Assembly (NCBI GenBank): GCA_963783385.1
Contig: CAWANJ010000001.1
Location: forward strand, 717,154-781,153
Direction: 5' to 3'
DNA length: 64,000 bases
Origin: an uncultured Gemmatimonadales bacterium
GTDB taxonomy: Bacteria > Gemmatimonadota > Gemmatimonadetes > Palauibacterales > Palauibacteraceae
The notes under the pieces were generated by a model. It saw nothing but the letters and a program-made list of their open reading frames with translations. It was not told where the DNA came from and made no database searches. Positions 20,515 through 58,530 of the stretch are shown piece after piece (positions within the stretch are counted from its first letter, which is position 1; the number at the start of each line of letters is the position of its first letter). Position numbers and translations under genes: made by a program.

Positions 20515-21342
20515 ATGAACTACGCCGAGCGGTTCCGCGTCGAGCCCGGGAGCCGGGTGGACCTGTCGTCGATCGACCCGGGCTTCCGCGGCGACGAGTC
20601 GAAGGGCGACGCGAAGGAGGCGCTGGAGGGGGACCGAGACCGCCTGCGCGAGCTGCAGGGCCTCCTGTACGCCGGCGACCGGCACTCCCTCCTCCTCTGC
20701 CTTCAGGGTATGGACACGGCCGGCAAGGATGGCACGATCAACCACGTGTTCAGCGCCATGAACCTGCAGGGCTGCCGCGTGGTGAACTTCCGGCAGCCCT
20801 CGGCCGAGGAGCTGGCGCACGACTTCCTGTGGCGCGTCCACCGGAAGGCGCCCGGCCGCGGTGAGGTGGTGGTGTTCAACCGCTCGCACTACGAGGACGT
20901 GCTCGTGGTGCGCGTGCACTCGCTGGTGCCCGAGGAGGTCTGGTCCCTGCGCTACGACCGGATCAACGCGTTCGAGCGCGGCCTGGCCGACCACGACACG
21001 ATCGTCCTCAAGTTCTTCCTCCACATCTCCAGGGAGGAGCAGCTCGAGCGGTTCGGGGACCGGATCGACGAGCCCGACAAGCGCTGGAAGATCAGCGAGT
21101 CCGACTACGCGGAGCGCACGCGGTGGGACGCGTACACGGAGGCGTACGAGGACGCGCTCTCCCGGTGCAGCACCGAGCGCGCTCCCTGGTACGTGATCCC
21201 CTCCGACCACAAGTGGTTCCGGAACCGGGCCATCGCGCGCATCGTGGTCGAGCGGCTGGAGGCGCTCGGCATGGGCTACCCCGAGCCCACCGTCGACCTC
21301 GAGCGCGTTCGGCGGGAGTACCACGCGGCGAAGGAGGAGTAG
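20515..21342 (+). CDS. ppk2: Polyphosphate kinase 2 family protein
   Basis: [41 protein letters not shown]. Confidence 0.92.
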
Positions 21343-25588: not shown

Positions 25589-25690
25589 GCTTAACACGAC
25601 GGGTGCCGCTTCACCGCCTGCGGCGGCTCGCCCTTCGGGACGCCCGCTCGCTGGGACTCGCGGGCGTCGGCAACCGCGGGGACGTTAGAC
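25589..25690 (+). repeat. attC-like site family A (~100 bp, 12 copies)
   Basis: TAACACGACGG(G/C)TGCCGC...GGCAACCGC..GGACGTTA; copies start 25589, 31971, 41789, 44180, 48153, 55519, 56927, 58770, 59521, 60912, 61696, 63221 (last has AGC for AAC). Confidence 0.88.
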
Positions 25691-25876
25691 GCCAGGTCCC
25701 CAAGACGGGGGTGATCGATTCCCGATTCGGAGGCGATGTCCCGAACCGCTGCCGCGAGAGGCGCAGCTCAGGCCGACCCCCGCTCGGAGGGAGAGAGAGC
25801 CTCCGAATCGAAGCTGAAGAGCGAATCGCTTAGCAGGTTGGAAGACAGGGCCACCGCTTGGATCGGGGGACCCGGC

Positions 25877-26032
25877 GTCTAACAGGATGGGTAGCGGCTC
25901 GCGCGCGAGGGCGCGCTCGCTTCAACCTGCTAGGCTTTTCGAAGGCGGGGATTCGGTGCGGGCTGCTAATCGAGGATCGGTCCGGCAGCGCAGAGCGGGC
26001 CAAGCAGGTTCGCTACCCACCGGACGTTAAGC
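25877..26032 (+). repeat. attC-like site family B (~156 bp, 7 copies)
   Basis: TAACAGGAYGGGTAGCG...AACCTGC...GCAGGTTCGCTACCCACCGGACGTTA; starts 25877, 27833, 28518, 29308, 32603, 34446, 62346. Confidence 0.88.
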
Positions 26033-26082
26033 GTCACGCTTATATCTCACCAACCTTGCTCAACGGATGTGGGCACCGGCCA

Positions 26083-26712
26083 ATGGAAACACTCAAGCCA
26101 CTTGACGAGATCTGCGAACCGGACACGCGACATACGATCTTCGGGGGATTTGATCCCGAGGGAGTCAAGGGCGAGGAGGGCGTTAGCCTTCAGACACAGT
26201 ATGCACAGATGGAGCGCCTGGAATTGCCAAAGTCTGTGCCCGAGACCGTTCGCTCGGCTTATGCGGTCACCCGCATGCTATGGGTCTACGGATGGTTCTA
26301 TTGGCCCTTCTACACACTCGCGCTCCTCCACGCCAACACCTGCCTTGAGATGGCACTCCATCAACGCTTCCTCAAGGACGGCTTGTACGATGAAGAGGGC
26401 GACTCATCTAGGAAGGCAAAGAACCGGACGCTAAGCTGGCTGATAAAGAGAGCCGTTGAGATGGGCTGGTTGGAGGACGAGGCTTTCGAGCACATTCGAT
26501 GGTGGACCCGGCAGACGCCTCCGTTCGAGAATGAGGGAGACGAATCGGGACACCAGACCGCACCCGATCCTCAGCGGTATGCGAAGACGCTGGCCTCGAC
26601 CATTCCGAGCACCCGAAATGCGCAAGCCCATCCGGGGCACTATTCGCACGGCTTCCCGCAGGTACTGCCACTTCAGAACGCTCGGGACATCATTGTGCAG
26701 TTGTTCATGTAG
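26083..26712 (+). CDS. Cassette hypothetical protein with a HEPN-like R-x4-H motif
   Basis: LEMALHQRF...TLSWLI...TRNAQAHP. Confidence 0.6.
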   Translation: METLKPLDEICEPDTRHTIFGGFDPEGVKGEEGVSLQTQYAQMERLELPKSVPETVRSAYAVTRMLWVYGWFYWPFYTLALLHANTCLEMALHQRFLKDGLYDEEGDSSRKAKNRTLSWLIKRAVEMGWLEDEAFEHIRWWTRQTPPFENEGDESGHQTAPDPQRYAKTLASTIPSTRNAQAHPGHYSHGFPQVLPLQNARDIIVQLFM

Positions 26713-26731
26713 CGCATTGGGGACGCGCGAC

Positions 26732-26887
26732 GCTTAACAGGACGTGTGGCGGCTCGCGCGCCAAGGCGCGCTCGCTTCAACCTGCGGAATGCTGGATGAA
26801 GCAGTCAGGGGAAACGAGACATGTAGCATATATCAGTCAGGCGAACGAGAGTGGCCCGCAGGTTCGCCACCCGCCAGAACGTTATCG
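26732..26887 (+). repeat. attC-like site family D (3 copies); further families listed in evidence
   Basis: B-like outer arms with ATGTAGCATATRTCAGTCAGGC interior at 26732, 27491, 31133; related family at 28883, 35153, 45086; singleton sites at 33754, 36366, 42651, 46409, 47153, 51956, 54595. Confidence 0.85.
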
Positions 26888-26994
26888 GACCTGAGCCGCT
26901 CGGCTAGCACGAGTGGATTGGTGGTTGGAACCCCTACGGCCCGGTGTACAGGTATCTGCTTGAGCAAGTGCCCGCGGCGGGAGGACTTCACTCA

Positions 26995-27558
26995 ATGTCG
27001 ATCCAAGCCTCGATCGCATCCTTATGCACGGTGCTGGCGGCTGTCTTCATGACCTTCGCGGTGCCCCCCAGGGGGACCCAGGCCCAGTCGGTCAAACTCC
27101 CGGCGCCGAACGTTCGTCTATGCTATGCGGACTGTGACAGCATCCCCTCGCTCCCCGATCACGCGGAGCCACACCTCGCGAACCCCTCCGTCATGTTTCA
27201 GGCCATGACGGAGGCGTACCGACAGAGACCCAAGACGGCTGCGATCGGTGGCAGCGCTACCGTGGCGATCCTCATTGGCCAAGATGGTTCGGTCCGAGAG
27301 GTTCGTCTCATCACCAGCTCTGGCCACGCTACAATCGACACCATGGCCGTAGCGGTCGGCAGCGTGATCCGGGCCGCCCCCCGGCCTGGAAGCAAGAAGG
27401 TGCATGCCCGCTGGTACGAGATGCCCATCGCCTTCGAGACGAGAGATGATGCGAGACAGCCGGTCTACGCCCCGTGTCGGAGATCAAGTCCGATAACAGG
27501 TCGGGTGGCGGCTCGCGCGCCAAGGCGCGCTCGCTTCAACCTGCGGGATGTCGCTTGA
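26995..27558 (+). CDS. TonB C-terminal-domain-like secreted protein; stop codon falls inside the downstream site
   Basis: Signal peptide, GSATVAILIGQDGSVREVRLITSSGH...PIAF. Confidence 0.6.
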   Translation: MSIQASIASLCTVLAAVFMTFAVPPRGTQAQSVKLPAPNVRLCYADCDSIPSLPDHAEPHLANPSVMFQAMTEAYRQRPKTAAIGGSATVAILIGQDGSVREVRLITSSGHATIDTMAVAVGSVIRAAPRPGSKKVHARWYEMPIAFETRDDARQPVYAPCRRSSPITGRVAARAPRRARFNLRDVA

Positions 27559-28175
27559 AGCCGTCAGCGAAGACGGCCCATGTAGCATATATCAGTCAGG
27601 CGGACGCGGCGGGCCCGCAGGTTCGCCACCCGCAAGGACGTTAGACGCCAGGTCCCCAAGACGGGGGTGATCGATTCCCGATTCGGAGGCAATGTCCCGA
27701 GCCGCTGCCTCCAGAAGCGCAGCTCGAGCCGAGTTCCGCCCGGAGGGAGAGAGAGCCTCCGAATCGAAGCTGAAGAGCGAATCGCTTAGCAGGTTGGGAG
27801 GCAGGGCCGCCGCTTGGATCGGGGGACCCGGCGTCTAACAGGATGGGTAGCGGCTCGCGCGCAAAGGCGCGCTCGCTTTAACCTGCTGAGGCCTCTCGCA
27901 GATGGGGATCCGATGCGGGCTGCTGATCGAGGATCGGTCCGGCATCCGAGAGCGGGCCAAGCAGGTTCGCTACCCACCGGACGTTAGGCGCCAGGTCCCC
28001 AAGACGGGGGTGATCGATTCCTGATTCGGAGGCGAGGTCCCGAGCCGCGGCCTCAAGAGGCGCAGCTCGAGCCGGACTCCGCTCGAAGGGAGAGAGAGCC
28101 TCCGAATCGAGGCTGAAGAGCGAATCGCTTAGCAGGTTGGAAGGCAGGGCCACCGCTTGGATCGGGGGACCCGGC

Positions 28176-28331
28176 GCCTAACAGGATGGGTGGTGGCTCG
28201 CGCGCGCTCGCGCGCTCGCAGCAACCTGCGGTAGCTTTTCGAAAAGGGGAGGCGATGTCGGCGGTCGATTCGGACGCGTCCAGCCCTACGGGTCAGTCCA
28301 GCGCAGGTTCACCACCCACCGGACGTTAGAC
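28176..28331 (+). repeat. attC-like site family C (~152-157 bp, 9 copies, all attached to gene-less cassettes)
   Basis: TAACAGGATGGGTGGTG...GCAGGTTCACCACCCACCGGACGTTA; starts 28176, 29650, 29990, 30328, 32260, 32945, 34789, 35497, 36712 (split by IS1595). Confidence 0.88.
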
Positions 28332-28706
28332 GCCAGGTCCCCAAGACAGGGGTGATCGATGCCCGATTCGGAGGCGATGTCCCGAACCGCGGCCGCGAGA
28401 GGCGCAGCTCAGGCCGACCCCCGCTCGGAGGGAGAGAGAGCCTCCGAATCGAGGCTGAAGATCGAATCGCTTCGCAGGTGAGCAGGCAGGGCCGCCGCTT
28501 GGATCGGGGGACCCAGCGTCTAACAGGATGGGTAGCGGCTCGCGCGCGAGGGCGCGCTCGCTTCAACCTGCTGAGGCTTCTCGAAGGTGGGGATTCGATG
28601 CGGGCTGCTGATCGAGGATCGGTCCGGCAGCGCAGAGCGGGCCAAGCAGGTTCGCTACCCACCGGACGTTAGACGGAATTCCAAAGGATTCTGAGGGAGC
28701 AGAGGA

Positions 28707-28871
28707 ATGCGCACACCGAGGCCACAGGGCTGGAGACCCACAATGTCCGCAGCCGCAGCAGCCGGTGCTGCCGGTCTCGGGGTCCCGACACACTCCCCTG
28801 TCTGGACCGCCTTCGGCGCACTCGTCGGTGCCACGATCGGTTACCTCGTCGCACTTCGACTAGACAAGTAG
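28707..28871 (+). CDS. 54-aa small membrane peptide (glycine-zipper-like), not in the ORF track
   Basis: MRTPRPQGWRPTMSAAAAAGAAGLGVPTHSPVWTAFGALVGATIGYLVALRLDK; purine-rich RBS; fills cassette 28668-28889. Confidence 0.6.
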   Translation: MRTPRPQGWRPTMSAAAAAGAAGLGVPTHSPVWTAFGALVGATIGYLVALRLDK

Positions 28872-29064
28872 AGAGGAACTCCGTCTAACAGGACGGGCGG
28901 CGGCTCGCGCGCTCTCGCGCGCTCGACCCAACCTGCGGTAGCTTTTCAGAAATCGGAACGGTGAGGTGGCGACCGGTGGAGAACCGCTCCGCCCTGCTCT
29001 TCAGGCCACCGCAGGTTCGCCACCCGCCGGGACGTTATCCGCAATCTCAAGAGGGTTAGGTTCG

Positions 29065-29283
29065 ATGCGCCGGTTTGACGTCTTCGGTCGAATGATGGGA
29101 GTCGATCGAAAGGACGACCGTTGGCAGGTCTACGATCTCGGGCCCGACGGCAAGCGTCGCGAAGCCCGCGACATCATGATCCCGGCATCGGTCCCCGAGG
29201 AGCAGCTCGCTCTCTACCTTGCGGAGATCTTCCATGAGTCAGCGTCGCCACGACGGCCCGAGGTGCTGGAACTGGACCCCTGA
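29065..29283 (+). CDS. 72-aa hypothetical cassette protein
   Basis: MRRFDVFGR...GPDGKRR...YLAEIFHE; fills cassette 29034-29314. Confidence 0.65.
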   Translation: MRRFDVFGRMMGVDRKDDRWQVYDLGPDGKRREARDIMIPASVPEEQLALYLAEIFHESASPRRPEVLELDP

Positions 29284-30531
29284 GCCAGCACGGGAGCGAG
29301 AGTCTGCGGATAACAGGATGGGTAGCGGCTCGCGCGCTGCGCGCACTCGCTTCAACCTGCTGAAGCTGTTCGGAGGTGGGGATTCGGTGCGGGCAGCTGA
29401 TCGAAGATCGGTCCGGCAGCGGAGAACCGGCCAAGCAGGTTCGCTACCCACCGGACGTTAGGCGCCAGGTCCCCGAAACGGGATGTGCCGGGTTCCGATT
29501 CGGAGGCGAGGTCCCGAGCCGCTGCCTCTAGAAACGCAGCTCAGGCTGAGCTCCACTCGGAGGGAGAGGATGCCTCCGAATCGAGGCTGAAGAGCGAATC
29601 ACTTAGCGAGATGACAGGCAGGGCCACCGCTTGGATCGGGGGACCCGGCGCCTAACAGGATGGGTGGTGGCTCGCGCGCTCGCGCGCTCGCAGCAACCTG
29701 CGGTAGCTTTTCGAAAAGGGGAGGCGATGTCGGCGGTCGATTCGGTCGCGTCCAATCCAGCGATTCAGGCCAACGCAGGTTCACCACCCACCGGACGTTA
29801 GGCGCCAGGTCCCCGAAACTGGATGTGCCGGGTTCCGATTCGGAGGCGGGGTCCCGAGCCACTGCCTAGAGAGGCGCAGCTCAGGCTGAGCTCCACTCGG
29901 AGGGACAGAATGCCTCCGAATCGAGGCTGAAGAGCGAGTCGCTTAGCGAGAGGGAAGGCAGGGCCACCGCTTGGATCGGGGGACCCGGCGCCTAACAGGA
30001 TGGGTGGTGGCTCGCGCTCGCGCGCTCGCGGCAACCTGCGGTAGCTTTTCGAAAAGGGGAGGCGATGCCGGCGGTCGATTCGGACGCGTCCAATCGAGCG
30101 AATCAGGCCAACGCAGGTTCACCACCCACCGGACGTTAGGCGCCAGGTCCCCAAGACGGGGGTGATCGATTCCTGATTCGGAGGCGAGGTCCCGAGCCGC
30201 GGCCTCAAGAGGCGCAGCTCGAGCCGGACTCCGCTCGAAGGGAGAGAGAGCCTCCGAATCGAGGCTGAAGAGCGAATCGCTTAGCAGGTTGGAAGGCAGG
30301 GCCACCGCTTGGATCGGGGGACCCGGCGCCTAACAGGATGGGTGGTGGCTCGCGCGCGCTCGCGCGCTCGCAGCAACCTGCGGTAGCTTTTCGAAAAGGG
30401 GAGGCGATGTCGGCGGTCGATTCGGACGCGTCCAGCCCTACGGGTCAGTCCAGCGCAGGTTCACCACCCACCGGACGTTATCAGAAACGCGCCCCAGCTG
30501 ATTGGAAATAGGAGATTGGTACTGCAGCGCC

Positions 30532-30819
30532 CTAGGTGGAGGACGCAGCCTTCCTGGCTGGCGGAGGAGCCGGGGTACCATCCAGCATGCCGCGGATGCT
30601 GATGTCTTCGTCAACGTCGGGCCAGTGAATGCCTTGACCAGCTCCGATAAGACGGAAGTTGGTGCGCTGTTGGGGCGTGGCTTCGCTCAAGCGCCACGAC
30701 CACGCGAGCGGGACACTGATCGTACGGCCGTCTGTCAGGCGCGCGATGATCTCATTGTCGGTCACCTCGACGTCGGTCGCCAAGGGTTCAGACGTGGCCG
30801 CAGTGTTCGTCCCAGGCAT
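30532..30819 (-). CDS. DUF2442 protein (TA-like pair)
   Basis: LTDGRTISVPLAWSWRL...GIHWPDVDEDISI. Confidence 0.85.
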   Translation of the reverse strand: MPGTNTAATSEPLATDVEVTDNEIIARLTDGRTISVPLAWSWRLSEATPQQRTNFRLIGAGQGIHWPDVDEDISIRGMLDGTPAPPPARKAASST

Positions 30820-31030
30820 TCGAGATCCTCTGGATGTGGGACTCAATCAAGCCCCGGATCCTGTTGAGCTCGCGCGGAGCGAAGCCATGGTTGCGAGCGA
30901 GAACCAACGGGTCCAGCCAGAACTTGCACGTGGACCGATCACGCTCGACATGCACATGCTTTGGCTCCCTGCAATCGAAGCTGTAGAAGAAGAACCGGTA
31001 CGGTCCGGAGATGTCTGAAATGGTTGGCAT
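30788..31030 (-). CDS. DUF4160 protein (TA-like pair)
   Basis: MPTI...GPYRFFFYS...EPKHVHV...KFWL. Confidence 0.85.
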   Translation of the reverse strand: MPTISDISGPYRFFFYSFDCREPKHVHVERDRSTCKFWLDPLVLARNHGFAPRELNRIRGLIESHIQRISNAWDEHCGHV

Positions 31031-31328
31031 CACGCGTCCCGGCCCGAGGCTTCTCTACCCTCAGATGCTAGCATACACCGAGGCGCCTCGCCAAGAGCCG
31101 CGTTGGCCTCGAGGTCCACGGTCGCGCGAATCTGATAACAGGACGGGTGGCGGCTCGCGCGCCAAGGCGCGCTCGCTTCAACCTGCGGAATGTCGGTTGA
31201 AGCAGTCACTGGAAGCGGGCAATGTAGCATATGTCAGTCAGGCAAACGAGGGTGGCCCGCAGGTTCGCCACCCACCGGGGCGTTATGTCAAATGGCGCGC
31301 CATTGGCCTACGAGGCTAGATTTCTCGT

Positions 31329-31616
31329 ATGACACCGGCGGTGGCTGAGCTTCGGGAGCAGGTGCGAGACGTCATGCGGAAGCGTGGGGTCGTCCGAGCC
31401 AGTGTGTTCGGGTCCGTGGCCCGCGGGGAGGATCACCCGGCGAGCGATGTGGACTTCCTCGTCGAGCTGGAAGAGGGACGGACCCTCCTCGACCTGGCTG
31501 GCCTGCGGCTGGATCTCGAGGACCTTCTGGAGCGCGACGTTGACGTAGCCACACCGGCTTCTCTCCATCCCCAGCTCCGCGAACGTATCCTCGAGCAGCA
31601 GGTCCCGATCTTGTGA
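31329..31616 (+). CDS. MNT antitoxin (copy 1)
   Basis: VFGSVARGE...SDVDFLVE. Confidence 0.88.
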   Translation: MTPAVAELREQVRDVMRKRGVVRASVFGSVARGEDHPASDVDFLVELEEGRTLLDLAGLRLDLEDLLERDVDVATPASLHPQLRERILEQQVPIL

Positions 31617-31957
31617 CGCGCTCGGCTCGGATCCTTCTCGGGGACATCCTTGAGGCAGCCGAGCTGCTCGAACGCTACACGGCCGGCATCTCCCACCAGC
31701 AATTCGCGAACAACCTCGAGAAGCAGGACGCCGTCGCCCGCCGGATCGAGGTCATTGGGGAAGCCGTCAAAGGCCTCCCCGAGTCCCTTCGCCAGCGGCA
31801 CCCCGAAGTGCCGTGGCGGGAGATTGCCGGAGCGAGGGATGTCCTGATTCACGAATACTTCCGAATCGACGTCAGGCTCGCCTGGGAGATGGTTCAGAAG
31901 GACATCCCGGACCTGGCAGCCAAGGTCCGGAAGATCCTGGGTGAACTCGAAGACTGA
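31613..31957 (+). CDS. HEPN/DUF86 toxin (copy 1)
   Basis: DAVARRIEVIGEA, PWREIAGARDVLIHEY. Confidence 0.88.
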   Translation: MTRSARILLGDILEAAELLERYTAGISHQQFANNLEKQDAVARRIEVIGEAVKGLPESLRQRHPEVPWREIAGARDVLIHEYFRIDVRLAWEMVQKDIPDLAAKVRKILGELED

Positions 31958-33207
31958 GGTCTGCCACTTCACATAACACGACGGCTGCCGCTTCGCCGCC
32001 TGCGGCGGCTCGCCCTGCGGGACGCCCGCTCGCTGAGACTCGCGGGCGTCGGCAACCGCGGGGACGTTAGACGCCAGGTCCCCGAAACAGGGGATGGTCG
32101 GTTCCCGATTCGGAGGCGATGTCCCGTAGCGCTGCCTCGGTGAACGCAGCTCAGGCTGAGCTCCACTCGGAGGGAGAGGATGCCTCCGAATCGAGGCTGA
32201 AGAGCGAATCGCTTAGCGAGATGGAAGGCAGGGCCACCGCTTGGATCGGGGGACCCGGCGCCTAACAGGATGGGTGGTGGCTCGCGCGCGCTCGCGCGCT
32301 CGCAGCAACCTGCGGTAGCTTTTCGAAAAGGGGGAGGCGATGTCGGCGGTCGATTCGGACGCGTCCAGCCCAACGAGTCAGGCCAGCGCAGGTTCACCAC
32401 CCACCGGACGTTAGACGCCAGGTCCCCAAGACGGGGGTGATCGATTCCCGATTCGGAGGCGATGTCCCGAACCGCTGCCGCGAGAGGCGCAGCTCAGGCC
32501 GACCCCCGCTCGGAGGGAGAGAGAGCCTCCGAATCGAAGCTGAAGATCGAATCGCTTAGCAGGTTGGGAGGCAGGGCCGCCGCTTGGATCGGGGGACCCG
32601 GCGTCTAACAGGATGGGTAGCGGCTCGCGCGCGAGAGCGCGCTCGCTTCAACCTGCTAGGCTTTTCGAAGGTGGGGATCCGATACGGGCTGCTGATCGAG
32701 GATCGGTCCGGCAGCGGAGAGCGGGCCAAGCAGGTTCGCTACCCACCGGACGTTAGGCGCCAGGTCCCCGAAACAGGGTGTGCCGGGTTCCGATTCGGAG
32801 GCGATGTCCCGAACCGCTGCCTCCAGAAGCGCAGCTCGAGCCAGCTTCCGCTCGGAGGGAGAAAGAGCCTCCGAATCGAGGCTGAAGAGCGAATCGCTTG
32901 GCGAGATGGCAGGCAGGGCCACCGCTTGGATCGAGGGACCCGGCGCCTAACAGGATGGGTGGTGGCTCGCGCGCGCTCGCGCGCTCGCAGCAACCTGCGG
33001 TAGCTTTTCGAAAAGGGGAGGCGATGTCGGCGGTCGATTCGGACGCGTCCAGCCCAACGAGTCAGGCCAGCGCAGGTTCACCACCCACCGGACGTTATAA
33101 GACATGCCATAGACGGGTGGGCCGATGGACCGATATCTACGTTGGCCTTGCGCCCCTTCGTGTCCGATGGGGAGCTGGGCAGCCGCTCTGGCCCGATCGG
33201 AGATGAG

Positions 33208-33606
33208 ATGACAGACCTCAACGAGTTCACGCTGGAGCAGGCCGAGGCGGCGGCCGCGAAGTTGTGGGCGTTCGGCAGCGCCCCTTTCCCGATGGCGGAC
33301 GGCGCGGTCATACAGGGTCATGTTGAGAAAGCTGTGACTGATACGGCCATCGCTTTCGCCATCCACGTGCGCCGCCTCCTAGATAATCACGGCATCCGTA
33401 CCCGATTCACGCTTGATGAGCCGTTTGTGCACTGGTCACCAACCGGCTCTGCGCCGAAGGTGGCGGTTCTTCGGGATGCCTTGAATCGAATCGTGCATGC
33501 CATTGATTTCGAGGTCGGCTTTGAGCGTCTACCGGATGATCAACACAAGATCAAAGGTGGCGCGATCACGGTCCTGGTACCTTCGGACCAGAACCGACCA
33601 ACGTGA
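33208..33606 (+). CDS. Hypothetical cassette protein, probably frameshifted at the 3' end
   Basis: LRDALNRIVHA motif; protein-like sequence continues in another frame. Confidence 0.5.
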   Translation: MTDLNEFTLEQAEAAAAKLWAFGSAPFPMADGAVIQGHVEKAVTDTAIAFAIHVRRLLDNHGIRTRFTLDEPFVHWSPTGSAPKVAVLRDALNRIVHAIDFEVGFERLPDDQHKIKGGAITVLVPSDQNRPT

Positions 33607-33875
33607 GGAAGGGCTGATCGACGTGTTCGCGCTTGCGTCCTGGCTTCTACCACCAGGTCTTGCCCGCGGTGCGTGGTCTTGGCCCCGATATGGCGTAACT
33701 TCCAGGTGGCGGAATGCTATTGATGCCTGGGTGTGCGGTGTGGTGGGCACGTCTTATAACAAACGGGTGCCGCCTTCGCTCGCTGCGCTCGCTCCGGAGA
33801 ACACGGCCCGCGGTGCGGGCCGCGTCGGCACCCTAGGACGTTATGTGCAAGTTCGGAACTAGCGCGAAGGTAGGA

Positions 33876-34145
33876 TCAGAGACGAGATAGTAGGTCATCA
33901 TAGTCGGCGTGGGAGCCGATCCAAAACCAGACGAGATCCTCCTGATCGCGGACACAGAGGGCCCGGTAGCCGCGACCGACGCGCGCGGAGTAGACCGGCC
34001 GGGAGGGATGAACCTGCTTGAACTGAAGGCTCGGATGCGTCGGGTCACGCTGAAATCGACGGTAGGCAATCCGGGCCTGCCGTTGAACGTGCGCTGGAAG
34101 TTGTGCGAAGGCCTTACGAAAGCGCGAGGTCGTGTGGGACGTCAC
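33876..34145 (-). CDS. RelE/ParE-fold toxin
   Basis: RFRKAFAQLP...PTHPSLQFK...YSARVGRGYRAL...WFWIGSHADYD. Confidence 0.85.
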   Translation of the reverse strand: MTSHTTSRFRKAFAQLPAHVQRQARIAYRRFQRDPTHPSLQFKQVHPSRPVYSARVGRGYRALCVRDQEDLVWFWIGSHADYDDLLSRL

Positions 34146-34360
34146 AGCGCATCGGGCTCGAGCGGCTTGGTCCGCCCGCGTCGATGCTCTTCCAGGGCTT
34201 CGTCGGCTAGGGACTCAAGGTGGCTTGCCGACGCGGCGAAGGAGCGGTCCCACTCCTCATCCGACTCGATCTCGTCGAGGAGAATCGCCGCTAGGGCGTC
34301 CTGCTGCTCGGAGGGCAGCCTCCTGGCCGCCTCGATCGCCTTCTTCAGTAGCTCGGTCAT
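34142..34360 (-). CDS. Antitoxin partner of the RelE/ParE-like toxin
   Basis: MTELLKKAIEAARRLPSEQQDALA...WDRSF; GTGA overlap. Confidence 0.8.
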   Translation of the reverse strand: MTELLKKAIEAARRLPSEQQDALAAILLDEIESDEEWDRSFAASASHLESLADEALEEHRRGRTKPLEPDAL

Positions 34361-34976
34361 CGTTTCCTCCGCCGTTCGGTGAATTCTACGCCGGCAGCCT
34401 GCACAAGTGCCAGCGGCCAGGCGAGCCACTCGGCGCCAAACCTGCACATAACAGGACGGGTAGCGGCTCGCGCGCGGAAGCGCGCTCGCTTCAACCTGCT
34501 GAAGCACTTCGGAGGTGGGGATCGGATGCGGGCTGCTGATCAGGGACCGGTCCGGCAGCGGAGAGCCTGCCAAGCAGGTTCGCTACCCACCGGACGTTAG
34601 GCGCCAGGTCCCCGAAACAGGGTGTGCCGGGTTCCGATTCGGAGGCAATGTCCCGAACCGCTGCCTCCAGAAGCGCAGCTCGAGCCAGCTTCCGCTCGGA
34701 GGGAGAAAGAGCCTCCGAATCGAGGCTGAAGAGCGAATCGCTTGGCGAGATGGCAGGCAGGGCCACCGCTTGGATCGAGGGACCCGGCGCCTAACAGGAT
34801 GGGTGGTGGCTCGCGCGCGCTCGCGCGCTCGCAGCAACCTGCGGTAGCTTTTCGAAAAGGGGAGGCGATGTCGGCGGTCGATTCGGACGCGTCCAGCCCA
34901 ACGAGTCAGGCCAGCGCAGGTTCACCACCCACCGGACGTTAGACGGAATTCCAAAGGATTCTGAGGGAGCAGAGGA

Positions 34977-35141
34977 ATGCGCACACCGAGGCCACAGGGC
35001 TGGAGACCCACAATGTCCGCAGCCGCAGCAGCCGGTGCTGCCGGTCTCGGGGTCCCGACACACTCCCCTGTCTGGACCGCCTTCGGCGCACTCGTCGGTG
35101 CCACGATCGGTTACCTCGTCGCACTTCGACTAGACAAGTAG
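34977..35141 (+). CDS. 54-aa small membrane peptide, second copy
   Basis: Cassette 34938-35159 appears identical to 28668-28889, including the downstream site. Confidence 0.6.
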   Translation: MRTPRPQGWRPTMSAAAAAGAAGLGVPTHSPVWTAFGALVGATIGYLVALRLDK

Positions 35142-35781
35142 AGAGGAACTCCGTCTAACAGGACGGGCGGCGGCTCGCGCGCTCTCGCGCGCTCGACCCA
35201 ACCTGCGGTAGCTTTTCAGAAATCGGAACGGTGAGGTGGCGACCGGTGGAGAACCGCTCCGCCCTGCTCTTCAGGCCACCGCAGGTTCGCCACCCGCCGG
35301 GACGTTAGGCGCCAGGTCCCCAAGACGGGGGTGATCGATTCCTGATTCGGAGGCGAGGTCCCGAGCCGCGGCCTCAAGAGGCGCAGCTCGAGCCGGACTC
35401 CGCTCGAAGGGAGAGAGAGCCTCCGAATCGAGGCTGAAGAGCGAATCGCTTAGCAGGTTGGAAGGCAGGGCCACCGCTTGGATCGGGGGACCCGGCGCCT
35501 AACAGGATGGGTGGTGGCTCGCGCGCGCTCGCGCGCTCGCAGCAACCTGCGGTAGCTTTTCGAAAAGGGGAGGCGATGTCGGCGGTCGATTCGGACGCGT
35601 CCAGCCCTACGGGTCAGTCCAGCGCAGGTTCACCACCCACCGGACGTTAACTGAAAGGTGCCTGTGGATTCAGAACGGGGCCTGAGACAGAGAGAGATGG
35701 ATGCTGGAGGAGGCGTGGCGACCCAACTCAAGGGACACGTGCGGACGGCTGGCCACGGCCGACGTATCAAGAGGAGGCGCG

Positions 35782-36279
35782 ATGCGAAGAGGCACGTCAG
35801 CGACGGTGGCTGAATTCCTCGGGAGTCTTCCAGTTGACCGGCAGACGACCGTGGAGGCGGTGCGGGCCGTGATTCGTCGACACCTGCCCCAGGGCTACGA
35901 GGAGGTGGTGGCAAAAAACATGCTGGTCTATCAGGTGCCGCTCAGCCGGTATGCGGACACCTACAACGGCCATCCGCTGTGGTATGTGGCGTTGGCGTCG
36001 GAAAAGTCGTACCTCTCGCTGCATTTGATGCCGGTATACGGGAGCGCTATCTACGCGGAGCGCCTAGCAGAGGGCTTCCGAAAGGAAGGCAAACGCCTGG
36101 ACATGGGTAAGGCATGCGTACGGTTCCGGAAGATTGAGGACCTAGCCCTCGCTCCGATCGGTGAAATAGTTGAAAGCGTGCCGGTGGATCGTTGGGTGGA
36201 GATTGCCAAGAGCGCGCGATCTCGAAGATCGCGGGACGGATCTGCTGGCCGCGCCACACCGGGTGCAGGCGACGGATAG
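35782..36279 (+). CDS. DUF1801 (YdhG-like) protein
   Basis: VAEFLGSLP...LPQGYEE...DMGKACVRF; GAGGAGG RBS. Confidence 0.8.
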   Translation: MRRGTSATVAEFLGSLPVDRQTTVEAVRAVIRRHLPQGYEEVVAKNMLVYQVPLSRYADTYNGHPLWYVALASEKSYLSLHLMPVYGSAIYAERLAEGFRKEGKRLDMGKACVRFRKIEDLALAPIGEIVESVPVDRWVEIAKSARSRRSRDGSAGRATPGAGDG

Positions 36280-36793
36280 AGGCGGTCCGGAAGCATTGGT
36301 AGAGGATTGTTAGCGCCGAGGTGGTGTGGCGACGAGCGGTGCTGTAGTACGCACCGGCACCCATCAGTTAACAAACAAGTTGCGCCTACGCCGCGCATGC
36401 GCGGCTCCGGGGAACACCGGCGCAAGGCACGCGGGCCGTGGGAAGCGTGCCGAGAATGTGTCGAAGAGCGGTGCTCGACGGGCCGTGACGGACGCGCCGG
36501 CGTCGCAACTTTAGGAACGTTAGGCGCCAGGTCCCCGAAACAGGGTGTGCCGGGTTCCGATTCGGAGGCGATGTCCCGAACCGCTGCCTCCAGAAGCGCA
36601 GCTCGAGCCAGCTTCCGCTCGGAGGGAGAGAGAGCCTCCGAATCGAGGCTGAAGAGCGAATCGCTTGGCGAGATGGCAGGCAGGGCCACCGCTTGGATCG
36701 AGGGACCCGGCGCCTAACAGGATGGGTGGTGGCTCGCGCGCGCTCGCGCGCTCGCAGCAACCTGCGGTAGCTTTTCGAAACGGAACTATGCAC

Positions 36794-36822
36794 TTGACAA
36801 ACCCATGCGCCCATGGTACCTT
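36794..36822 (+). promoter_or_regulatory. Sigma70-type promoter for the transposase, overlapping the left TIR
   Basis: TTGACA-17 nt-TACCTT with TGn extension. Confidence 0.6.
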
Positions 36823-36845
36823 TCATAGTAGAAAGGGGAGCTACC

Positions 36846-37754
36846 ATGAGCATGACGTTCGCGGAAGCATTGGCTCTGTCGGAGAGCGAGGCAAGGACCT
36901 ATCTGGAGCGCATCCGCTGGCCGGAAGGTCCCGTGTGCCCCCATTGCGGCGCGTCGGACCGGATCTATGACCTCCAGGGTAGCGCGCACCGCGAGGGCCT
37001 CTACAAGTGCGGATCCTGCCGGAAGCAGTTCACGGTCACGGTCGGTACCGTCATGCACCGGACCAAGATCCCGCTCCGCAAGTGGGTTCTGGCCTTCCAG
37101 ATCCTGTGCGCGTCCAAGAAGGGTGTCTCGGCCCTGCAGCTCCAGCGGATGCTGGACCTCGGGTCCTACCGGACCGCATGGCACATGGCGCACCGCATCC
37201 GGCTTGCCATGCGGGAAGAGCCACTCGCCACCATGCTCCATGGGCACGTGGAGGTCGATGAGACCTACATTGGCGGCAAGACACGGAAGGGCATCCGTGG
37301 GCGGGGCTCGGAGCGGAAGACCCCGGTCCTGGCACTCGTGGAGCGGAACGGCCGCGTGCGGTCGCAGCCCGTCCAGCGCGTGTCCGGCAAGGAACTCAAG
37401 GCCGCGATCCGGGAGCAGGTTCACAAGTCGGCCGCGATCCACACCGACGAACTGGCCTCCTACAAGGGCATTGGTGCCGAGTTCGAGGGCGGACATCACG
37501 TGGTGCGGCACGGACGGGGCGAGTACGTTGCCGGTCCGGCGAGCACCAACACCGCTGAGAGCTACTTTGCCCTGCTCAAGCGGTCGATCCACGGAGCCTA
37601 TCACAGCGTGTCGAAGAAGCATCTGGGGCGCTACCTCGACCACCAGGGCTTCCTGTGGAACACCAGGGACCTTCCGGATGGGGCGAGAGTGGATGCGGCG
37701 GTCCGCGGAGTCGGTGGCAAGCGGCTTACGTATTCGACGCCACGTAACCGGTGA
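36846..37754 (+). CDS. IS1595-family transposase
   Basis: RWPEGPVCPHCG zinc ribbon, VEVDETYIGG, IHTDE, TNTAESYF. Confidence 0.95.
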   Translation: MSMTFAEALALSESEARTYLERIRWPEGPVCPHCGASDRIYDLQGSAHREGLYKCGSCRKQFTVTVGTVMHRTKIPLRKWVLAFQILCASKKGVSALQLQRMLDLGSYRTAWHMAHRIRLAMREEPLATMLHGHVEVDETYIGGKTRKGIRGRGSERKTPVLALVERNGRVRSQPVQRVSGKELKAAIREQVHKSAAIHTDELASYKGIGAEFEGGHHVVRHGRGEYVAGPASTNTAESYFALLKRSIHGAYHSVSKKHLGRYLDHQGFLWNTRDLPDGARVDAAVRGVGGKRLTYSTPRNR

Positions 37755-37830
37755 GGATTGCGTGTTACAACGTAACCTTGTTACAGCTAACAGCGATGAC
37801 TAGATTCGATGGGCTACTTGACAGCGGCAA

Positions 37831-37932
37831 TGCGGGCGACCGGCTTTGCACCGGCACGGGGCAGCCTCGGGTAAGGGTTTGCGCCCCACCGACTCCCAAG
37901 GTCGGCGTGTCTACTAGTTCCACCACGCCCGC
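37831..37932 (-). tRNA. tRNA-like element: class II (Leu-type) body, TGG (Pro) anticodon, atypical T-loop, no encoded CCA
   Basis: GCGGGCG/CGCCCGC-A acceptor; GTG-GAACTAGTAGA-CAC D-arm; CCGAC-CTTGGGA-GTCGG anticodon arm; GGGGC...GCCCC long variable arm; GCCGG-TGCAAAG-CCGGT T-arm. Confidence 0.7.
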
Positions 37933-38094
37933 AGCGGAGGTCCAGGCCGGGCTGGTGCGGCGTACCGTACCGCCCATTCGGGGCGCGTACCCAACGCCCC
38001 TTACCCGGTCCTGGCCCGTCAACCGGTCGCGGCTACGCCCGCGCCCGGCCCCTCACGGCCCTCACGGACACCACCCGTGGGGGCCGTCTTCATC

Positions 38095-38505
38095 CTATCG
38101 GATCTTGTACCGTTTCTCGCGGCTTCCCTTCACGGGATCCAGCTTTACGTACACGTTGTCCTCGGTGGTCCCGTGATGCAGGTCCCAGCGCACGGAGTTC
38201 TTATTGAGCACCTCTCCCGTGCTGGCGCTCCGCTCCACGATCTCATTGATCGTAAGTGGGCTGTCCGCTCCGCGAAGGATGGTGGTGACTCGCTCTCGAA
38301 TGCTGACATCTCCGGCAGCACCGGCCGATGCGTGGGCCTTTCCATTGCGCCCGGCACCGGCTGCACCCGTCTTCTGGACGGCGTCAACCAGCTCCTTCAG
38401 CGTCTCGTGGACCAACCGCTGGAGTTCCAGTTTGCGCTCCGCCTGCCGGATCTCCACCTCGCTATCCTCGAGCTTCTTCCGGAGCAGATCCATGACTTCT
38501 GTCAT
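38095..38505 (-). CDS. IS passenger: coiled-coil plus winged-HTH-like protein
   Basis: Heptad-like N-terminus; IRERVTTIL...PLTINEIVE...KNSVRWDL. Confidence 0.55.
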   Translation of the reverse strand: MTEVMDLLRKKLEDSEVEIRQAERKLELQRLVHETLKELVDAVQKTGAAGAGRNGKAHASAGAAGDVSIRERVTTILRGADSPLTINEIVERSASTGEVLNKNSVRWDLHHGTTEDNVYVKLDPVKGSREKRYKIR

Positions 38506-38630
38506 TGTTTCGGAACTCCTTTCGGCGGGCCAGCCATCACTCAGTGTTGGTGGACTGATGGAAGGTAAGCGCTCAGGCATGGAGGAGCAAGGAGGCCATC
38601 CGATGGGCCATCACTCGAGGAGGGCATCCT

Positions 38631-38801
38631 ATGAGTAAGCCGCATGACAAGGAGTCAGGAGAGCGGGATTCGCTCTCCCTTCATCCCCTGGAGTTGGATG
38701 AAGCCATGGCCGGTTTCCTTCAAGTGGACCCCAAGAAGGTGAAGGAGGCGGAACATGAAAGGCAGCATGAAGACGAGAATGACACTCGGGAGGACCGATG
38801 A
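38631..38801 (+). CDS. 56-aa IS passenger peptide, ATGA-coupled to the RM gene (not in the ORF track)
   Basis: GAGGAGG RBS; MSKPHDKESGERDSLSLHPLELDEAMAGFLQVDPKKVKEAEHERQHEDENDTREDR. Confidence 0.6.
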   Translation: MSKPHDKESGERDSLSLHPLELDEAMAGFLQVDPKKVKEAEHERQHEDENDTREDR

Positions 38802-41347
38802 GGTCGCTCGTCGTTGACGCCCTATCTGGCCGAGAAGTAATCGCCGGCCCAGAGGAACGGGACGCAACGCAGCCTTTTGTCTTCTATCTGACGCAGCGCC
38901 TCGGCTGGCATCCGAAGCAGATCATTACTCGTCCTCAGTGGCGAGTACCCAAGTCCCCGTCGTCGCCAAGAAGCTCGGGCTATCCAGTAGACATTGCCAT
39001 CTTTGACTCAGAGGAGTACGCGGGAGACCCCGACCACATCCAGATCATTGTAGAGTGCAAAGCGCCAAGCGAGGATCAGGGAATAGGGGAGCTCAAGACC
39101 TACCTGGGCTTAGAGCCAGAAGCACGCCTTGGCATTTGGTTCAACGGTGAGAAGCATGTGCTGGTATGGAAGGTGGCGGACGGCTTCTCGGTCGACAGAT
39201 ATGGACCAGTGCCGCGCTCAACCGACCCGTTAGCGCCAACCGAATCGCAGCCTCCGCTTCGATATGTAGACCTCGTACCGCCGCCCAACCTAGGCGAGAT
39301 TTTCCGTAGGCTTCGGGACCGCATTGCCGCGCAGGACACGCACGTCAACAGGGATGAGTTCATTCTAAACGATCTTGCCAACCTACTCGTGTGCAAGATA
39401 GCCGACGAGCAGGAAGGACAATTGGAGCCCAATCGGCCGATGGCGTTTCAGCTGGCGGGTTCGCAGAAAGCCACAGCGGAGTCGATTCGCCGCTACTTCA
39501 CGGAGATCAAGAATCGACTAACATCCGTGTTCACGGACAGAGATGAGCGATTGCACATTGACGACGAGAGCTTGGAAGAAGTGGTGCGAACACTTCAAGC
39601 CTACATTTTGCTCGACCATGACAGACATGCCGTGGGCACGGCGTTTCAGGTCCTTCGCGGTCGAGCGTTAAAGGGCGAGGAGGGCTCCTATTTCACCCCG
39701 CCGCCGCTCGTTGACTGCGTGGTGTCCATCCTAGACCCTGATCACGGCACTCGACTCGTTGATCCGGCTTGTGGAACGGGCGGATTCTTGGCGGCTGCTC
39801 TCGATCACGTTTTCACTGGGATCGACAACAAGAAGCTGTCCGCCGATGCGAAGACACGCGCTAAGACCACATGGGCGGGCGAATCTCTCATTGCGGTAGA
39901 CAAGGATGCAGTATCCACGAAGCTATGCAAGGCATACCTCACCCTTCTTGGAGATGGGCGGTCACACGTCTACCGGGCAGATGCGATTGACCGGACCGCG
40001 TGGGGCGAGCGGGCCGATGACCTGCAACGGGTTGTGGCGAGCGGGACCTTCGACCAGGTCATGACTAACCCGCCGTTCGGATCGAAGCTCAAGATTAGCG
40101 CGGATACCGGTCGCCAGGAGCAGTTGCTGGTATGCAGGAGGTGGGTCGACGCAGGATCTGAATGGAAACCAACCGACGAATGGACGGACCAGCAGCTCGG
40201 CATCGCATTCTTTGAGCGTGCTGTGGATCTCCTAAGCAACGGAGGAAATCTCGCCATCGTTCTTCCGGAGACCTTTCTGTTCTCCCCAAGCTTCAAATGG
40301 TTCATTGACTGGATTTGCCGAACTCTTACAGTTACCCATGTTGTCGACGTTCCCATGGTAGCATTCGAGGAGTTTTGCCGCGCCAAGACGTGCCTCGTCT
40401 TCGTCCGAAAGACCAAGCCATCCCCCGGACATTGCACGGTCATGAGCTTCCCACGATCTATCGGACAAGACAAGCGGGGCAAGCCTCTCTTCGCGCTCAA
40501 TGGAGAGGGCGTAAGAAAGGAGGGGGAGGGCCTTGACAATGAAATGGCGGAGGCCGTGAAGGAGATCGTTTCGAGGGGCTACAGGGGCAAGACGAAAACG
40601 GATCGCAAGGGAAGCCATGGTCGCTATTGCTTCACAGTAGCTCAAGCGGACATCAGGAGGCGTGGCGTTCTTGTCCCCCGCTTTTGGTGGAGGTCACATA
40701 CTGACGATGCTTTACATGAATGGTCAGAGAAGCACGACAGCCGGATACTGAGCCTCGGTGAGCTTGCAGACCGCGGAGCGATTGAAGCCTTCAGCGGACA
40801 TGGCTCGCCACCAGGAAATGCGAGGGGAACCGGAAAGGTCCCTTATGTGAAGGTTACCGATCTGAAGAACTGGCGCATCAACGAAAACCCGACAAACTTC
40901 ATTCACCAGAGCATCGCAGAGAAGTATTGGGCACGCGGACCGTCACTTGAGTACGGAGATTTGATCTCTCCCGCTCGCGCTTCATTGAACATCGGACAGT
41001 TTTCGATGGTGCTACCGTGGCAGACTCGCATCGTGGTGACTCGTGAGGTGCTAATCTTACGCGTCCACGACAACGATCTAGGGATAGACCCGTTCCTGCT
41101 GCTTGTGCTCCTTTCCTTGAAAGTGGTGCAGGACCAATACGAGAACCTCGCTCTCATGCAGACCAACAGGGAGCATTGAGGAGACCACTGGCGCGAAGTC
41201 CAAATCCCGATACCGGCCACAGAGTCTGCCAGGAAGCAACTGTCGCGTCCCGTGCGGGATTACTTCGATGCGATCATAGCGGCTCGCGAGTCATACCGAA
41301 GAATCTTCACCAAGTACGACCGTCAGGATTTCGGCACAAGGCCATGA
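38798..41347 (+). CDS. Fused restriction endonuclease/N6-adenine methyltransferase/specificity protein (Type IIG-like); in-frame TGA at 41177-41179
   Basis: VDIAIF...VECK nuclease motif, YFTP, DPACGTGGFL, NPPF, TRD-like tail; frame stays open for 55 codons after the TGA. Confidence 0.85.
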
Positions 41348-41521
41348 CGGCGGCGCACTGGGTTTGTCAACGCCATAGTTCCGTTTCGAAAAGGGGAGGC
41401 GATGTCGGCGGTCGATTCGGACGCGTCCAGCCCAACGAGTCAGGCCAGCGCAGGTTCACCACCCACCGGACGTTATGCGAAAACCGATGAATGGCCAGAT
41501 CCTTCTGGACTACAGAGGCCC

Positions 41522-45038: not shown

Positions 45039-45274
45039 CCCCTGACGGCGGCCACATGACTGGGGCTCAGACGGTCACCACCCTCGGATAACAGGACGGG
45101 CGGCGGCTCGCGCGCTAGCGCGCTCGCAGCAACCTGCGGTAGCTTTTTGGAAACCCGCACCGGACCCGGTGACTGACGGAGGACCGCCCTGCCATGGCCT
45201 TCGGGCCACCGCAGTTTCGCCACCCGCCGGGGACGTTATGCACCACTGCACTTTGCATCGGGGAGCGCCGGTCG

Positions 45275-57213: not shown

Positions 57214-58530
<1,317 letters not shown>

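Follow-up and report, generated by a model that had tools for sequence, protein, structure and literature searches.

Can a transposon carry a transfer RNA (tRNA) gene whose body and anticodon belong to different amino acids, and what would such a gene do in the bacterium that receives it? This question is raised by a 102-nt sequence on the minus strand, at positions 37831–37932 of a 64,000-nt stretch of DNA from an uncultured Gemmatimonadales bacterium (hereafter the window). An earlier note, made from the letters alone, had described this sequence as a complete cloverleaf inside an IS1595 element, with a leucine (Leu)-type class II body and a proline (Pro) anticodon. Judged by sequence and predicted fold, 37831–37932 is tRNA-derived beyond reasonable doubt, and it is best described as a structurally intact tRNA gene descended from tRNA-Leu and bearing the Pro anticodon UGG.

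The tRNA gene and the transposon around it

Minimum-free-energy (MFE) folding of the 102-nt sequence revealed a cloverleaf in which all 20 of the 20 stem pairs were standard, with the canonical 7/5 acceptor/T arrangement. Stem pairs were counted by positional parse, and the covariance-model alignment, which was distorted by the long arm of the window tRNA, was not used for this purpose. The acceptor stem (GCGGGCG/CGCCCGC) was fully paired (7/7) with G1:C72, the D arm consisted of the stem GTG/CAC and the loop GAACTAGTAGA with A18 and G19, and the anticodon stem (CCGAC/GTCGG) enclosed the loop CTTGGGA, with U33, G37, and the anticodon TGG at 37896–37898. A variable region of 33 nt (37856–37888) folded as its own hairpin, and the T arm (GCCGG/CCGGT, with one G-U pair) carried the loop TGCAAAG (T54, G55, C56, A58). 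Among the tertiary positions, U8, A14, G19, U33, T54, C56, and A58 were kept, with G18 changed to A and U55 to G. The 3' end showed A73 and no encoded CCA, which should be no handicap because most Leu, Pro, and Ser tRNA genes of the host also lack an encoded CCA. The folding-energy z-score was only −0.85, which is unexceptional for a G+C-rich sequence. The complete cloverleaf of the earlier note was thus borne out, on the minus strand.

The assignment of the body to the Leu type, as the earlier note had it, was upheld by the D arm (a 3-bp D stem, a GAA..G(G)UAGA D loop), the class II shape with its long variable region, and the discriminator A73, all of which fit bacterial tRNA-Leu, whereas the anticodon TGG does not (Leu anticodons are NAG or YAA). 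Of the features expected of bacterial tRNA-Pro, the NGG anticodon and G37 were present, whereas C1:G72 was absent and the variable loop was not of the short class I type; the three tRNA-Pro genes of the host read CGGGG.../...CCCCG and are 75 nt long. An alignment of the 5' half of the window tRNA to host tRNA-Leu(TAG) showed compensatory changes in three stems (acceptor, D, and anticodon), and over its first 30 nt the window tRNA shared 93% identity with a Methylobacterium bullatum tRNA-Leu(CAA) of canonical type. When a covariance model was trained on L022 and L029 alone, the tRNAs of two other loci described below, it recovered the window tRNA at 19.3 bits, with an E value of 0.032 for 510 kb and of 0.0063 for 100 kb. 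The host genome itself has a full set of five tRNA-Leu isoacceptors, and UGG is among the anticodons of its three tRNA-Pro genes; every one of these tRNAs has the canonical G18G19/TTCRA core.

The tRNA gene lies within a 4,603-bp element (36781–41383) with terminal inverted repeats of approximately 31 nt (Table 1). Analysis with blastn-short revealed a 35-nt inverted match between 36771–36805 and 41359–41393 (91% identity, E 1.2e-8), and the terminal core GGAAYTATGCACTTGACAAA was repeated at the ends of related elements; the core of the left repeat (GGAACTATGCACTTGACAAA) was conserved at the element ends of more than 25 related loci. A weak 13/15 inverted repeat (36812–36826 / 38755–38769) was dropped as a candidate once blastn-short gave the true ends. 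Two uninterrupted paralogous copies of the target (34800–34920 and 35508–35628) each contain a single TTTCGAAA. Beyond the single TTTCGAAA of the copy at 34858, the sequence agrees over 84 nt, without a difference, with the right flank of the element from 41392 on; the two paralogous copies are true empty sites. The G+C content was 59.5% in the element versus 71.2% in the genome. The element is therefore a cargo-bearing IS1595-family transposon inserted in a repeat of a 71% G+C genome, and the location claimed by the earlier note is secured by inverted repeats, target duplication, and empty sites. Its intact transposase and perfect target duplication suggest a young insertion. The IS1595-family transposase is single copy in the 3.5-Mb host genome, DNA similar to the element was not found in 60 relatives (only two matches shorter than 31 nt), and comparison with plasmids gave a match limited to the transposase core.

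Table 1. Features of the IS1595-family transposon in the window and its target duplication
Feature	Position	Strand	Evidence
Left 8-bp target-site duplication TTTCGAAA	36773..36780	.	Single copy at empty sites
Left terminal inverted repeat, core GGAACTATGCACTTGACAAA	36781..36811	+	blastn-short; core kept in related loci
IS1595-family transposase, 313 aa	36813..37754	+	Pfam DDE_Tnp_IS1595 (E 3.9e-37), Zn_ribbon_IS1595 (E 3.2e-15)
Leu-type class II tRNA gene, anticodon UGG	37831..37932	-	MFE cloverleaf, stem table, covariance model, pattern membership
Small open reading frame (ORF), 161 aa from first start (136 aa in protein collection), coiled coil and probable HARE-HTH	38095..38580	-	
N6-adenine DNA methyltransferase, Eco57I / type IIG-like, 793 aa, cargo	38798..41179	+	Pfam N6_Mtase, Eco57I
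Right terminal inverted repeat	41352..41383	-	blastn-short; comparison with related elements
Right 8-bp target-site duplication TTTCGAAA	41384..41391	.	Flank match to empty site

The tRNA gene is on the strand opposite to the transposase, 77 nt beyond the transposase stop codon, and the small ORF lies 162 nt upstream of it on the same strand as the tRNA. HMMER analysis assigned 10 remote relatives to the small-ORF family, and the Pfam HARE-HTH domain matched 5 of 10 aligned members (the window protein and nine relatives), with a best E value of 3.3e-4. Leads from the protein atlas were winged-helix proteins, all scoring below 0.9 except for clusters of hypothetical proteins, and a word-based protein search with the small ORF returned no protein besides itself. 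On these sequence matches, the small ORF is read as a probable DNA-binding partner of the methyltransferase, not of the tRNA. The methyltransferase was matched by the PADLOC models MTase_II, MTase_I, and mad2, and by the NCBIfam model MAD2 with 217.6 bits, under the cutoff of 720.

The transposon sits in one copy of a repeat of approximately 267 bp, of which the window holds at least 13 same-strand copies (84–99% identical) at ~25660–36780 and again from 41392. The spacing of this array is irregular (~340–900 bp), with short matches also near 45089 and 62349; each copy ends in ...GCTTTTCGAAAAGGGGAGGCGATG and is followed by a short conserved frame, MSAVDSDASSPT..GSPPTGR, of 24–60 codons. Elsewhere in the window, an Rfam ALIL pseudoknot at 58086–58202 on the minus strand (109.8 bits), an IS3-family frameshift element, appears to mark a second, unrelated mobile element. 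ARAGORN called a 92-nt 'tRNA-Thr(GGT)' at 21150–21241 on the minus strand without Rfam support, which may be a false positive; genome-wide, it made three more over-long calls that look equally doubtful.

A tRNA class with A18 and G55 in environmental arrays

The contact between G18 and U55, like U55 itself, is near-universal in tRNAs, and the earlier note had pointed out that both partners are changed in the window gene. To place this change, we used a Leu-type pattern of 24 specified bases that requires A18 in the D arm and TGCAA as T loop, so that A18/G55 is built into it. The window tRNA is an exact match to this D-arm/T-loop pattern, which also matched at least 119 metagenome loci, nearly all of them tRNA-Leu genes, and 13 viral contigs; the reversed pattern gave no match in 301 genomes. 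Leu anticodons were read in 108 of the 124 metagenome matches listed (CAG 46, TAG 23, GAG 19, CAA 12, and TAA 8). The metagenome and viral matches listed included 84 distinct sequences with Leu anticodons; 68 of these had perfect stems, 82 had A73, and CCA came next in 45 of the 84. Four matches that were poorly formed or misparsed (L105, L106, L110, and L210) were set aside.

The loci around these matches are rich in tRNA genes. Among the matches listed, ARAGORN called 1,313 tRNAs in 674 kb around the pattern loci, with four or more tRNAs at 99 of 132 loci, and a TGCRA T loop was present in 324 of 946 distinct array tRNAs from many isotypes. A18 and G55 are therefore present in the window gene as the earlier note described, without being peculiar to it: by its sequence distribution, the pair appears to be the mark of a large array-borne class of tRNAs and not a sign of decay. 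When the arrays of L094–L225 were broken down by isotype, TGCRA, that is, G55 in place of U55, was observed in 118 of 176 Leu, 20 of 32 Cys, 25 of 55 Met, 16 of 30 Phe, and 20 of 60 Pro tRNAs. Horizontally spread tRNA arrays have been described (PMC8421152), and the window tRNA resembles them in its body type (A18/G55, TGCAA), which is that of dense environmental and viral arrays; it differs in being a single tRNA taken up by a DDE transposon. The G55 hallmark goes unmentioned in PMC8421152, as the terms T-loop and G18 are absent there.

The class was not recovered as resident tRNA in the genomes sampled. The strict Leu-type pattern was absent from 300 other genomes of the phylum to which the window belongs, and a looser pattern found no tRNA in 81 Acidobacteriota genomes (four matches, all in coding sequence) or in four further genomes; in the 6.3-Mb genome of L022, the L022 tRNA itself was the sole match. 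We also considered A18/G55 as the housekeeping tRNA-Leu type of some phylum, an idea left unsupported by the Gemmatimonadota, the Acidobacteriota, and the five other genomes scanned. A blastn search against cultured phage genomes gave no match. Because the class sits in arrays and the pattern is absent from the sampled genomes, the body of the window tRNA appears to belong to a mobile, array-associated pool that is foreign to its host.

Anticodons of other kinds also occur on this body. Leu-type A18/G55 tRNAs with mostly intact stems carried stop-reading anticodons, namely TTA (L095, L119, and L203) and TCA (L140/L225), the TCA example lying in a tRNA array of a viral contig, and others, likewise with mostly intact stems, carried the Asp anticodon GTC (L101 and L168). 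One and the same tRNA-Leu(CAG), which has C33 in place of the near-universal U33 (loop CCCAGAC), was found in four separate metagenome contigs (L124, L155, L159, and L185).

Proline anticodons on Leu bodies and tRNA cargo in related transposons

Six further loci carry a Leu-type tRNA with an NGG anticodon: L022, L120, and L137 (AGG), L109 (CGG), and L146 and L194a (TGG). L194a, likewise of the Leu type, has a core of the canonical kind (GG/TTCGAGT), and its acceptor stem contains a single G-G mismatch. NGG anticodons accounted for 4 of the 124 metagenome matches listed. In a stem table of eight tRNAs (the seven with NGG plus L029, which has anticodon CAG and C55), 157 of 160 stem cells were standard pairs, and both partners differed from those of the window tRNA at 16 of the 20 positions. 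Random stem decay among homologues, which would have counted against the earlier note, is therefore not seen, the fold being kept through compensatory changes.

Among 100 distinct sequences, the window tRNA and L137 were mutual nearest neighbours, as were L120 and L146 (L120 being tied with L124, a CAG tRNA), and within both pairs the anticodon stems were wholly replaced through compensatory changes. This pattern suggests, weakly and from few characters, that NGG-bearing lineages may have persisted. The well-formed class members with non-Leu anticodons comprise, besides those with NGG, three with TTA, one with TCA, and two with GTC. Anticodon position 35 was changed in the NGG (6), TTA (3), and TCA (1) members, and position 36 alone in none; changes at position 35 keep the 36–37 context, and G37 was found in four of the seven NGG tRNAs (window, L022, L120, and L146).

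To what extent the tRNA travels with IS1595 elements was examined in related transposons, as the earlier note had proposed for fold and anticodon variation. A Leu-type tRNA was present in 4 of 21 delimited elements including that of the window, and three of these four carry Pro anticodons, two of them outside the window. The tRNA of L022 (extended as L232) lies inside a 4.0-kb element with target duplication TAACACAG, that of L029 inside a 2.9-kb element with target duplication AAAACAGT, and L194 is a 3.9-kb element (target duplication GAATCATG) with two Leu-like tRNAs upstream of the transposase. All three elements are flanked by perfect 8-bp duplications, which were found in 11 of 14 delimited elements. 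The second tRNA of L194 (1539–1640) is a Leu-like A18/G55 tRNA right after the TGG tRNA; with an anticodon loop of 6 nt and mismatches in its acceptor, it looks like a decaying copy. At L022 and L029, the tRNA lies between two same-strand ORFs. No IS1595 ends were found, within the sequence at hand, at the four NGG loci outside the window, L022, and L194; their neighbours are nevertheless of the mobile type and encode HTH and M78 peptidase, Fic, DUF5131, and primase-like proteins and a type I S subunit.

A quick tree of 74 transposase rows placed the transposases of the four tRNA-bearing elements within one well-supported clade of 25 rows, where they were not mutual closest relatives. Because they are not each other's closest relatives, the tRNA appears to be occasional cargo that was taken up repeatedly or often lost. 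Cargo other than tRNA in the delimited elements consisted of restriction-modification or toxin-antitoxin genes; within the clade, it was of the kind involved in conflict and comprised PIN domains (L027 and L034), a SocA/Panacea antitoxin pair (L194), and DUF3800 and DUF7689 proteins, and a PDC-M34A-like (DUF5343) protein adjoins the L022 tRNA. The closest relative of the window element is L014 (transposase 65% identical), which also has a type IIG-like methyltransferase. L014 and L015 are 99.97% identical element copies on one contig of an Acidobacteriota metagenome-assembled genome, inverted and ~10 kb apart, each with a 621-aa HSDR_N_2 + N6_Mtase + Eco57I gene. A methyltransferase of the type IIG-like kind is therefore cargo common to the members of this sub-branch.

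Charging, decoding, and competing explanations

For known bacterial relatives of this arrangement, IS1595-family elements with passenger genes form ISfinder groupings such as ISPna2+ and ISNwi1+. The window element resembles them in its DDE_Tnp_IS1595 and zinc-ribbon transposase, inverted repeats, 8-bp duplications, and genes between the repeats, and differs from them in having a tRNA gene as passenger. Outside bacteria, the nematode nev-tRNAs, reported by Hamashima et al. in 2012, are said to combine a Leu-type class II body with a non-Leu anticodon and to be charged with leucine; they are reportedly nuclear genes of eukaryotes, have anticodons for Gly and Ile, and are not on a mobile element. 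Among bacteria, allo-tRNAs, known alongside irregular tRNA polycistrons from soil, are described in passages of two papers as having 8/4 or 9/3 acceptor/T stems and serine identity, and as occurring in soil metagenomes, often near toxin-antitoxin genes (Mukai et al. 2017, PMC5389517; PMC7609411); one of them overlaps a transposon-related ORF (PMC5389517). They share with the window tRNA a class II shape and a mismatch of body and anticodon, but the latter, with its 7/5 arrangement, A73, and Leu-type D arm, falls outside their definition as given in those passages. The allo-tRNA passages of PMC5389517 mention neither a Leu body with a Pro anticodon nor a tRNA in a delimited insertion-sequence-type transposon. 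Eight ARAGORN calls of 'Ile(tat)' tRNAs of 82 nt or longer occur in the same arrays as the A18/G55 class (loci among the matches listed), and may be of the allo-tRNA kind.

The tRNAProX/ProRSx systems of Streptomyces and Kitasatospora, as far as the sections of PMC11415595 on them go, consist of tRNAs in which a Pro body bears an anticodon for Ala, Asn, or Thr, together with a synthetase dedicated to them. According to the same sections, they too are a natural bacterial hybrid identity with predicted or shown mistranslation of sense codons, and they have A34, as do the three AGG tRNAs found here. The arrangement is reversed in the window tRNA, which has a Leu body and a Pro anticodon, and no synthetase gene was found in the window element. 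We found no literature report of tRNA cargo in IS1595 or any other insertion-sequence family, nor of the A18/G55 class, and no reported bacterial tRNA with Leu body and Pro anticodon, although the supplementary tables of Mukai et al., which may list related sequences, were not covered. The window tRNA is thus a hybrid-identity tRNA, a known kind, in a new genetic vehicle.

The earlier note put forward three possible roles, namely Leu-for-Pro mistranslation, a decoy for nucleases, and regulatory mimicry of a tRNA. What such a gene might do is suggested by its body. Passages of two papers state that leucyl-tRNA synthetase (LeuRS) does not read the anticodon (PMC11028032; PMC11415595), and we infer that the array-spread Leu-type class must be charged by whichever host LeuRS it meets. 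Because the body mostly carries Leu anticodons and LeuRS ignores the anticodon, Leu charging is the simplest reading, and we tentatively regard it as quite possible that the gene encodes a mobile missense tRNA, which LeuRS charges and which puts Leu at the CCN codons of Pro. In this case, the gene would be transcribed, probably jointly with the upstream small ORF, and the transcript would be processed by RNase P and a 3' nuclease, with CCA added by the host enzyme. Aminoacylation would be mainly by LeuRS via A73, the Leu-type D arm, and the tertiary core, the anticodon being ignored, and the charged tRNA would read CCA/CCG (CCN) and put Leu for Pro at a low level. A mistranslating tRNA of this kind would travel with defence and addiction cargo.

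Several observations weigh against this proposal. For the window tRNA, ARAGORN made no call and Rfam returned nothing at the gathering score or at E<=10 (361 bases searched); the 33-nt variable region is the likely cause of this missed detection. The ARAGORN check proposed in the earlier note accordingly failed on this copy and succeeded elsewhere, other NGG members being labelled 'tRNA-Pro'. The 33-nt region ties for the longest in the class listed, the sole other case being a poorly formed match, and G60 is found in only 1 of 100 distinct sequences listed (T in 98, C in 1). Leu-type tRNAs are borne by only a minority of the delimited elements, and by 2 of 19 when finds made by transposase similarity are counted alone. 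A scan of 37600–38700 gave neither a sigma-70-like promoter nor an intrinsic terminator, and no RNA run was listed as containing positions 36800–38100 of the window (one soil DNA run had a small share). BLASTP of the flanking ORFs of L022, L029, L109, L137, L146, and the window identified no protein partner common to the tRNA loci; comparison of the profile of the window small-ORF family with the L137 ORF gave an hhalign probability of 16%. G18 matters for Escherichia coli LeuRS; because A18 replaces it here and the five tRNA-Leu of the host are all G18G19/TTCRA, the host LeuRS may charge the window tRNA poorly. G35, G36, and A73 are determinants for prolyl-tRNA synthetase (ProRS), so that ProRS charging could occur instead of or beside LeuRS charging. 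Finally, replacing Pro by Leu across the proteome should harm the cell, so that any activity would be expected to be low or absent.

Some of these points would suit a relic better than a working gene. It is rather unlikely, in our judgement, that the gene is an inactive descendant of an array-derived tRNA-Leu(UAG), altered by A35G, T60G, and a variable-arm insertion of ~18–22 nt, and neither expressed nor charged. The failed detection by ARAGORN and Rfam, the class-outlying G60 and variable region, and the position of a lone tRNA without a promoter match would be expected of a relic, and the nearest relative L137 reads TGGGG-ATAT-CCCCGT where the window has a 22-nt filling. The visibly degenerate second Leu-like tRNA of L194 indicates that such cargo does decay, and with an apparently young insertion, intact stems need not mean selection in the host. 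However, none of the 20 stem pairs is broken, the inserted segment lengthens the arm as a hairpin without disrupting it, and Pro anticodons recur both in three of the four transposon-borne Leu-type tRNA elements and on intact Leu bodies at six other loci, with compensatory divergence. These six loci, two of them in IS1595 transposons, also weaken the fallback of the earlier note, a decayed tRNA-Leu(TAG), which is nevertheless possible for this particular copy. The conserved fold and recurrent NGG loop could alternatively be kept for a purpose other than decoding: the RNA might, as a decoy or sponge, divert an anticodon nuclease or a toxin that modifies tRNAs and recognises the Pro anticodon loop, or it might serve as a tRNA-shaped 3' processing or stability signal of the small-ORF transcript. 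The setting of these tRNAs amid restriction-modification, toxin-antitoxin, and candidate defence genes, and between two same-strand ORFs at L022 and L029, would suit such a role, which we nonetheless consider distinctly improbable: no nuclease or toxin partner is common to the loci, the window cargo lacks any tie to tRNA cleavage, and, its acceptor stem being intact and A73 in place, a decoy would not escape charging and use in decoding.

The remaining alternative grants decoding and changes the amino acid. The gene could be a proline tRNA charged by ProRS through G35, G36, and A73 on an unusual Leu-type class II A18/G55 chassis, for example as a reserve tRNA-Pro(UGG) out of reach of toxins or defence nucleases that attack tRNAs, or for decoding CCA in mobile genes that are richer in A/T than their 71% G+C host; we judge this unlikely. 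NGG occurs in seven Leu-type tRNAs, four of them with the tRNA-Pro-like G37, and CCA makes up 18 of 64 Pro codons (28%) in the three transposon genes versus 1,777 of 30,521 (5.8%) in 606 long host ORFs, an increase that nevertheless follows automatically from the lower G+C content of the element. The cargo of sister elements includes PIN-domain toxins (L027 and L034) and the Panacea/SocA antitoxin pair (L194), but no tRNA-targeting toxin was found in the window element. Bacterial immune systems often target tRNAs, and some viruses bring their own tRNAs in compensation, as sections of PMC12409363 describe; in parts of PMC8421152, translational stress is described as inducing L-array tRNAs. Against ProRS charging stand G1:C72, where bacterial tRNA-Pro and the three of the host have C1:G72, the rest of the body, which is fully Leu-like and would therefore invite competition by LeuRS, and the tRNA-Pro(UGG) already present in the host.

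If the tRNA is charged with leucine, it may be part of something wider, although we hold this extension to be doubtful: a mobile mistranslation module, in which IS1595-type transposons and other defence-island cargo would spread LeuRS-charged tRNA(NGG) and turn Pro codons to Leu in any cell that they reach. Such a module could act, under certain conditions, as a weapon or a means of addiction, for instance by induced poisoning of phage or host translation, or could rescue CCN-stalled ribosomes under attack on tRNA-Pro. The G55 T loop of a third of the array tRNAs would then be an adaptation that separates the mobile tRNA pool from host tRNAs.

Natural tRNAs with discordant body and anticodon are rare, and both genetic-code change and deliberate mistranslation draw on them as raw material. 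Three things have no counterpart in the literature that we searched. A tRNA gene is carried by an insertion-sequence-type transposon whose ends are proven; Leu body and Pro anticodon are repeatedly combined in bacteria, in seven cases, of which three lie in related transposons from different bacteria; and, on sequence evidence, a large array-borne tRNA class has A18/G55 in place of the G18/U55 contact. If the window tRNA is charged with leucine, a jumping gene would change the reading of a sense-codon family in each new host, and the cost, control, and use of mistranslation in conflicts between phage and host or transposon and host would become testable with a gene of 100 nt.

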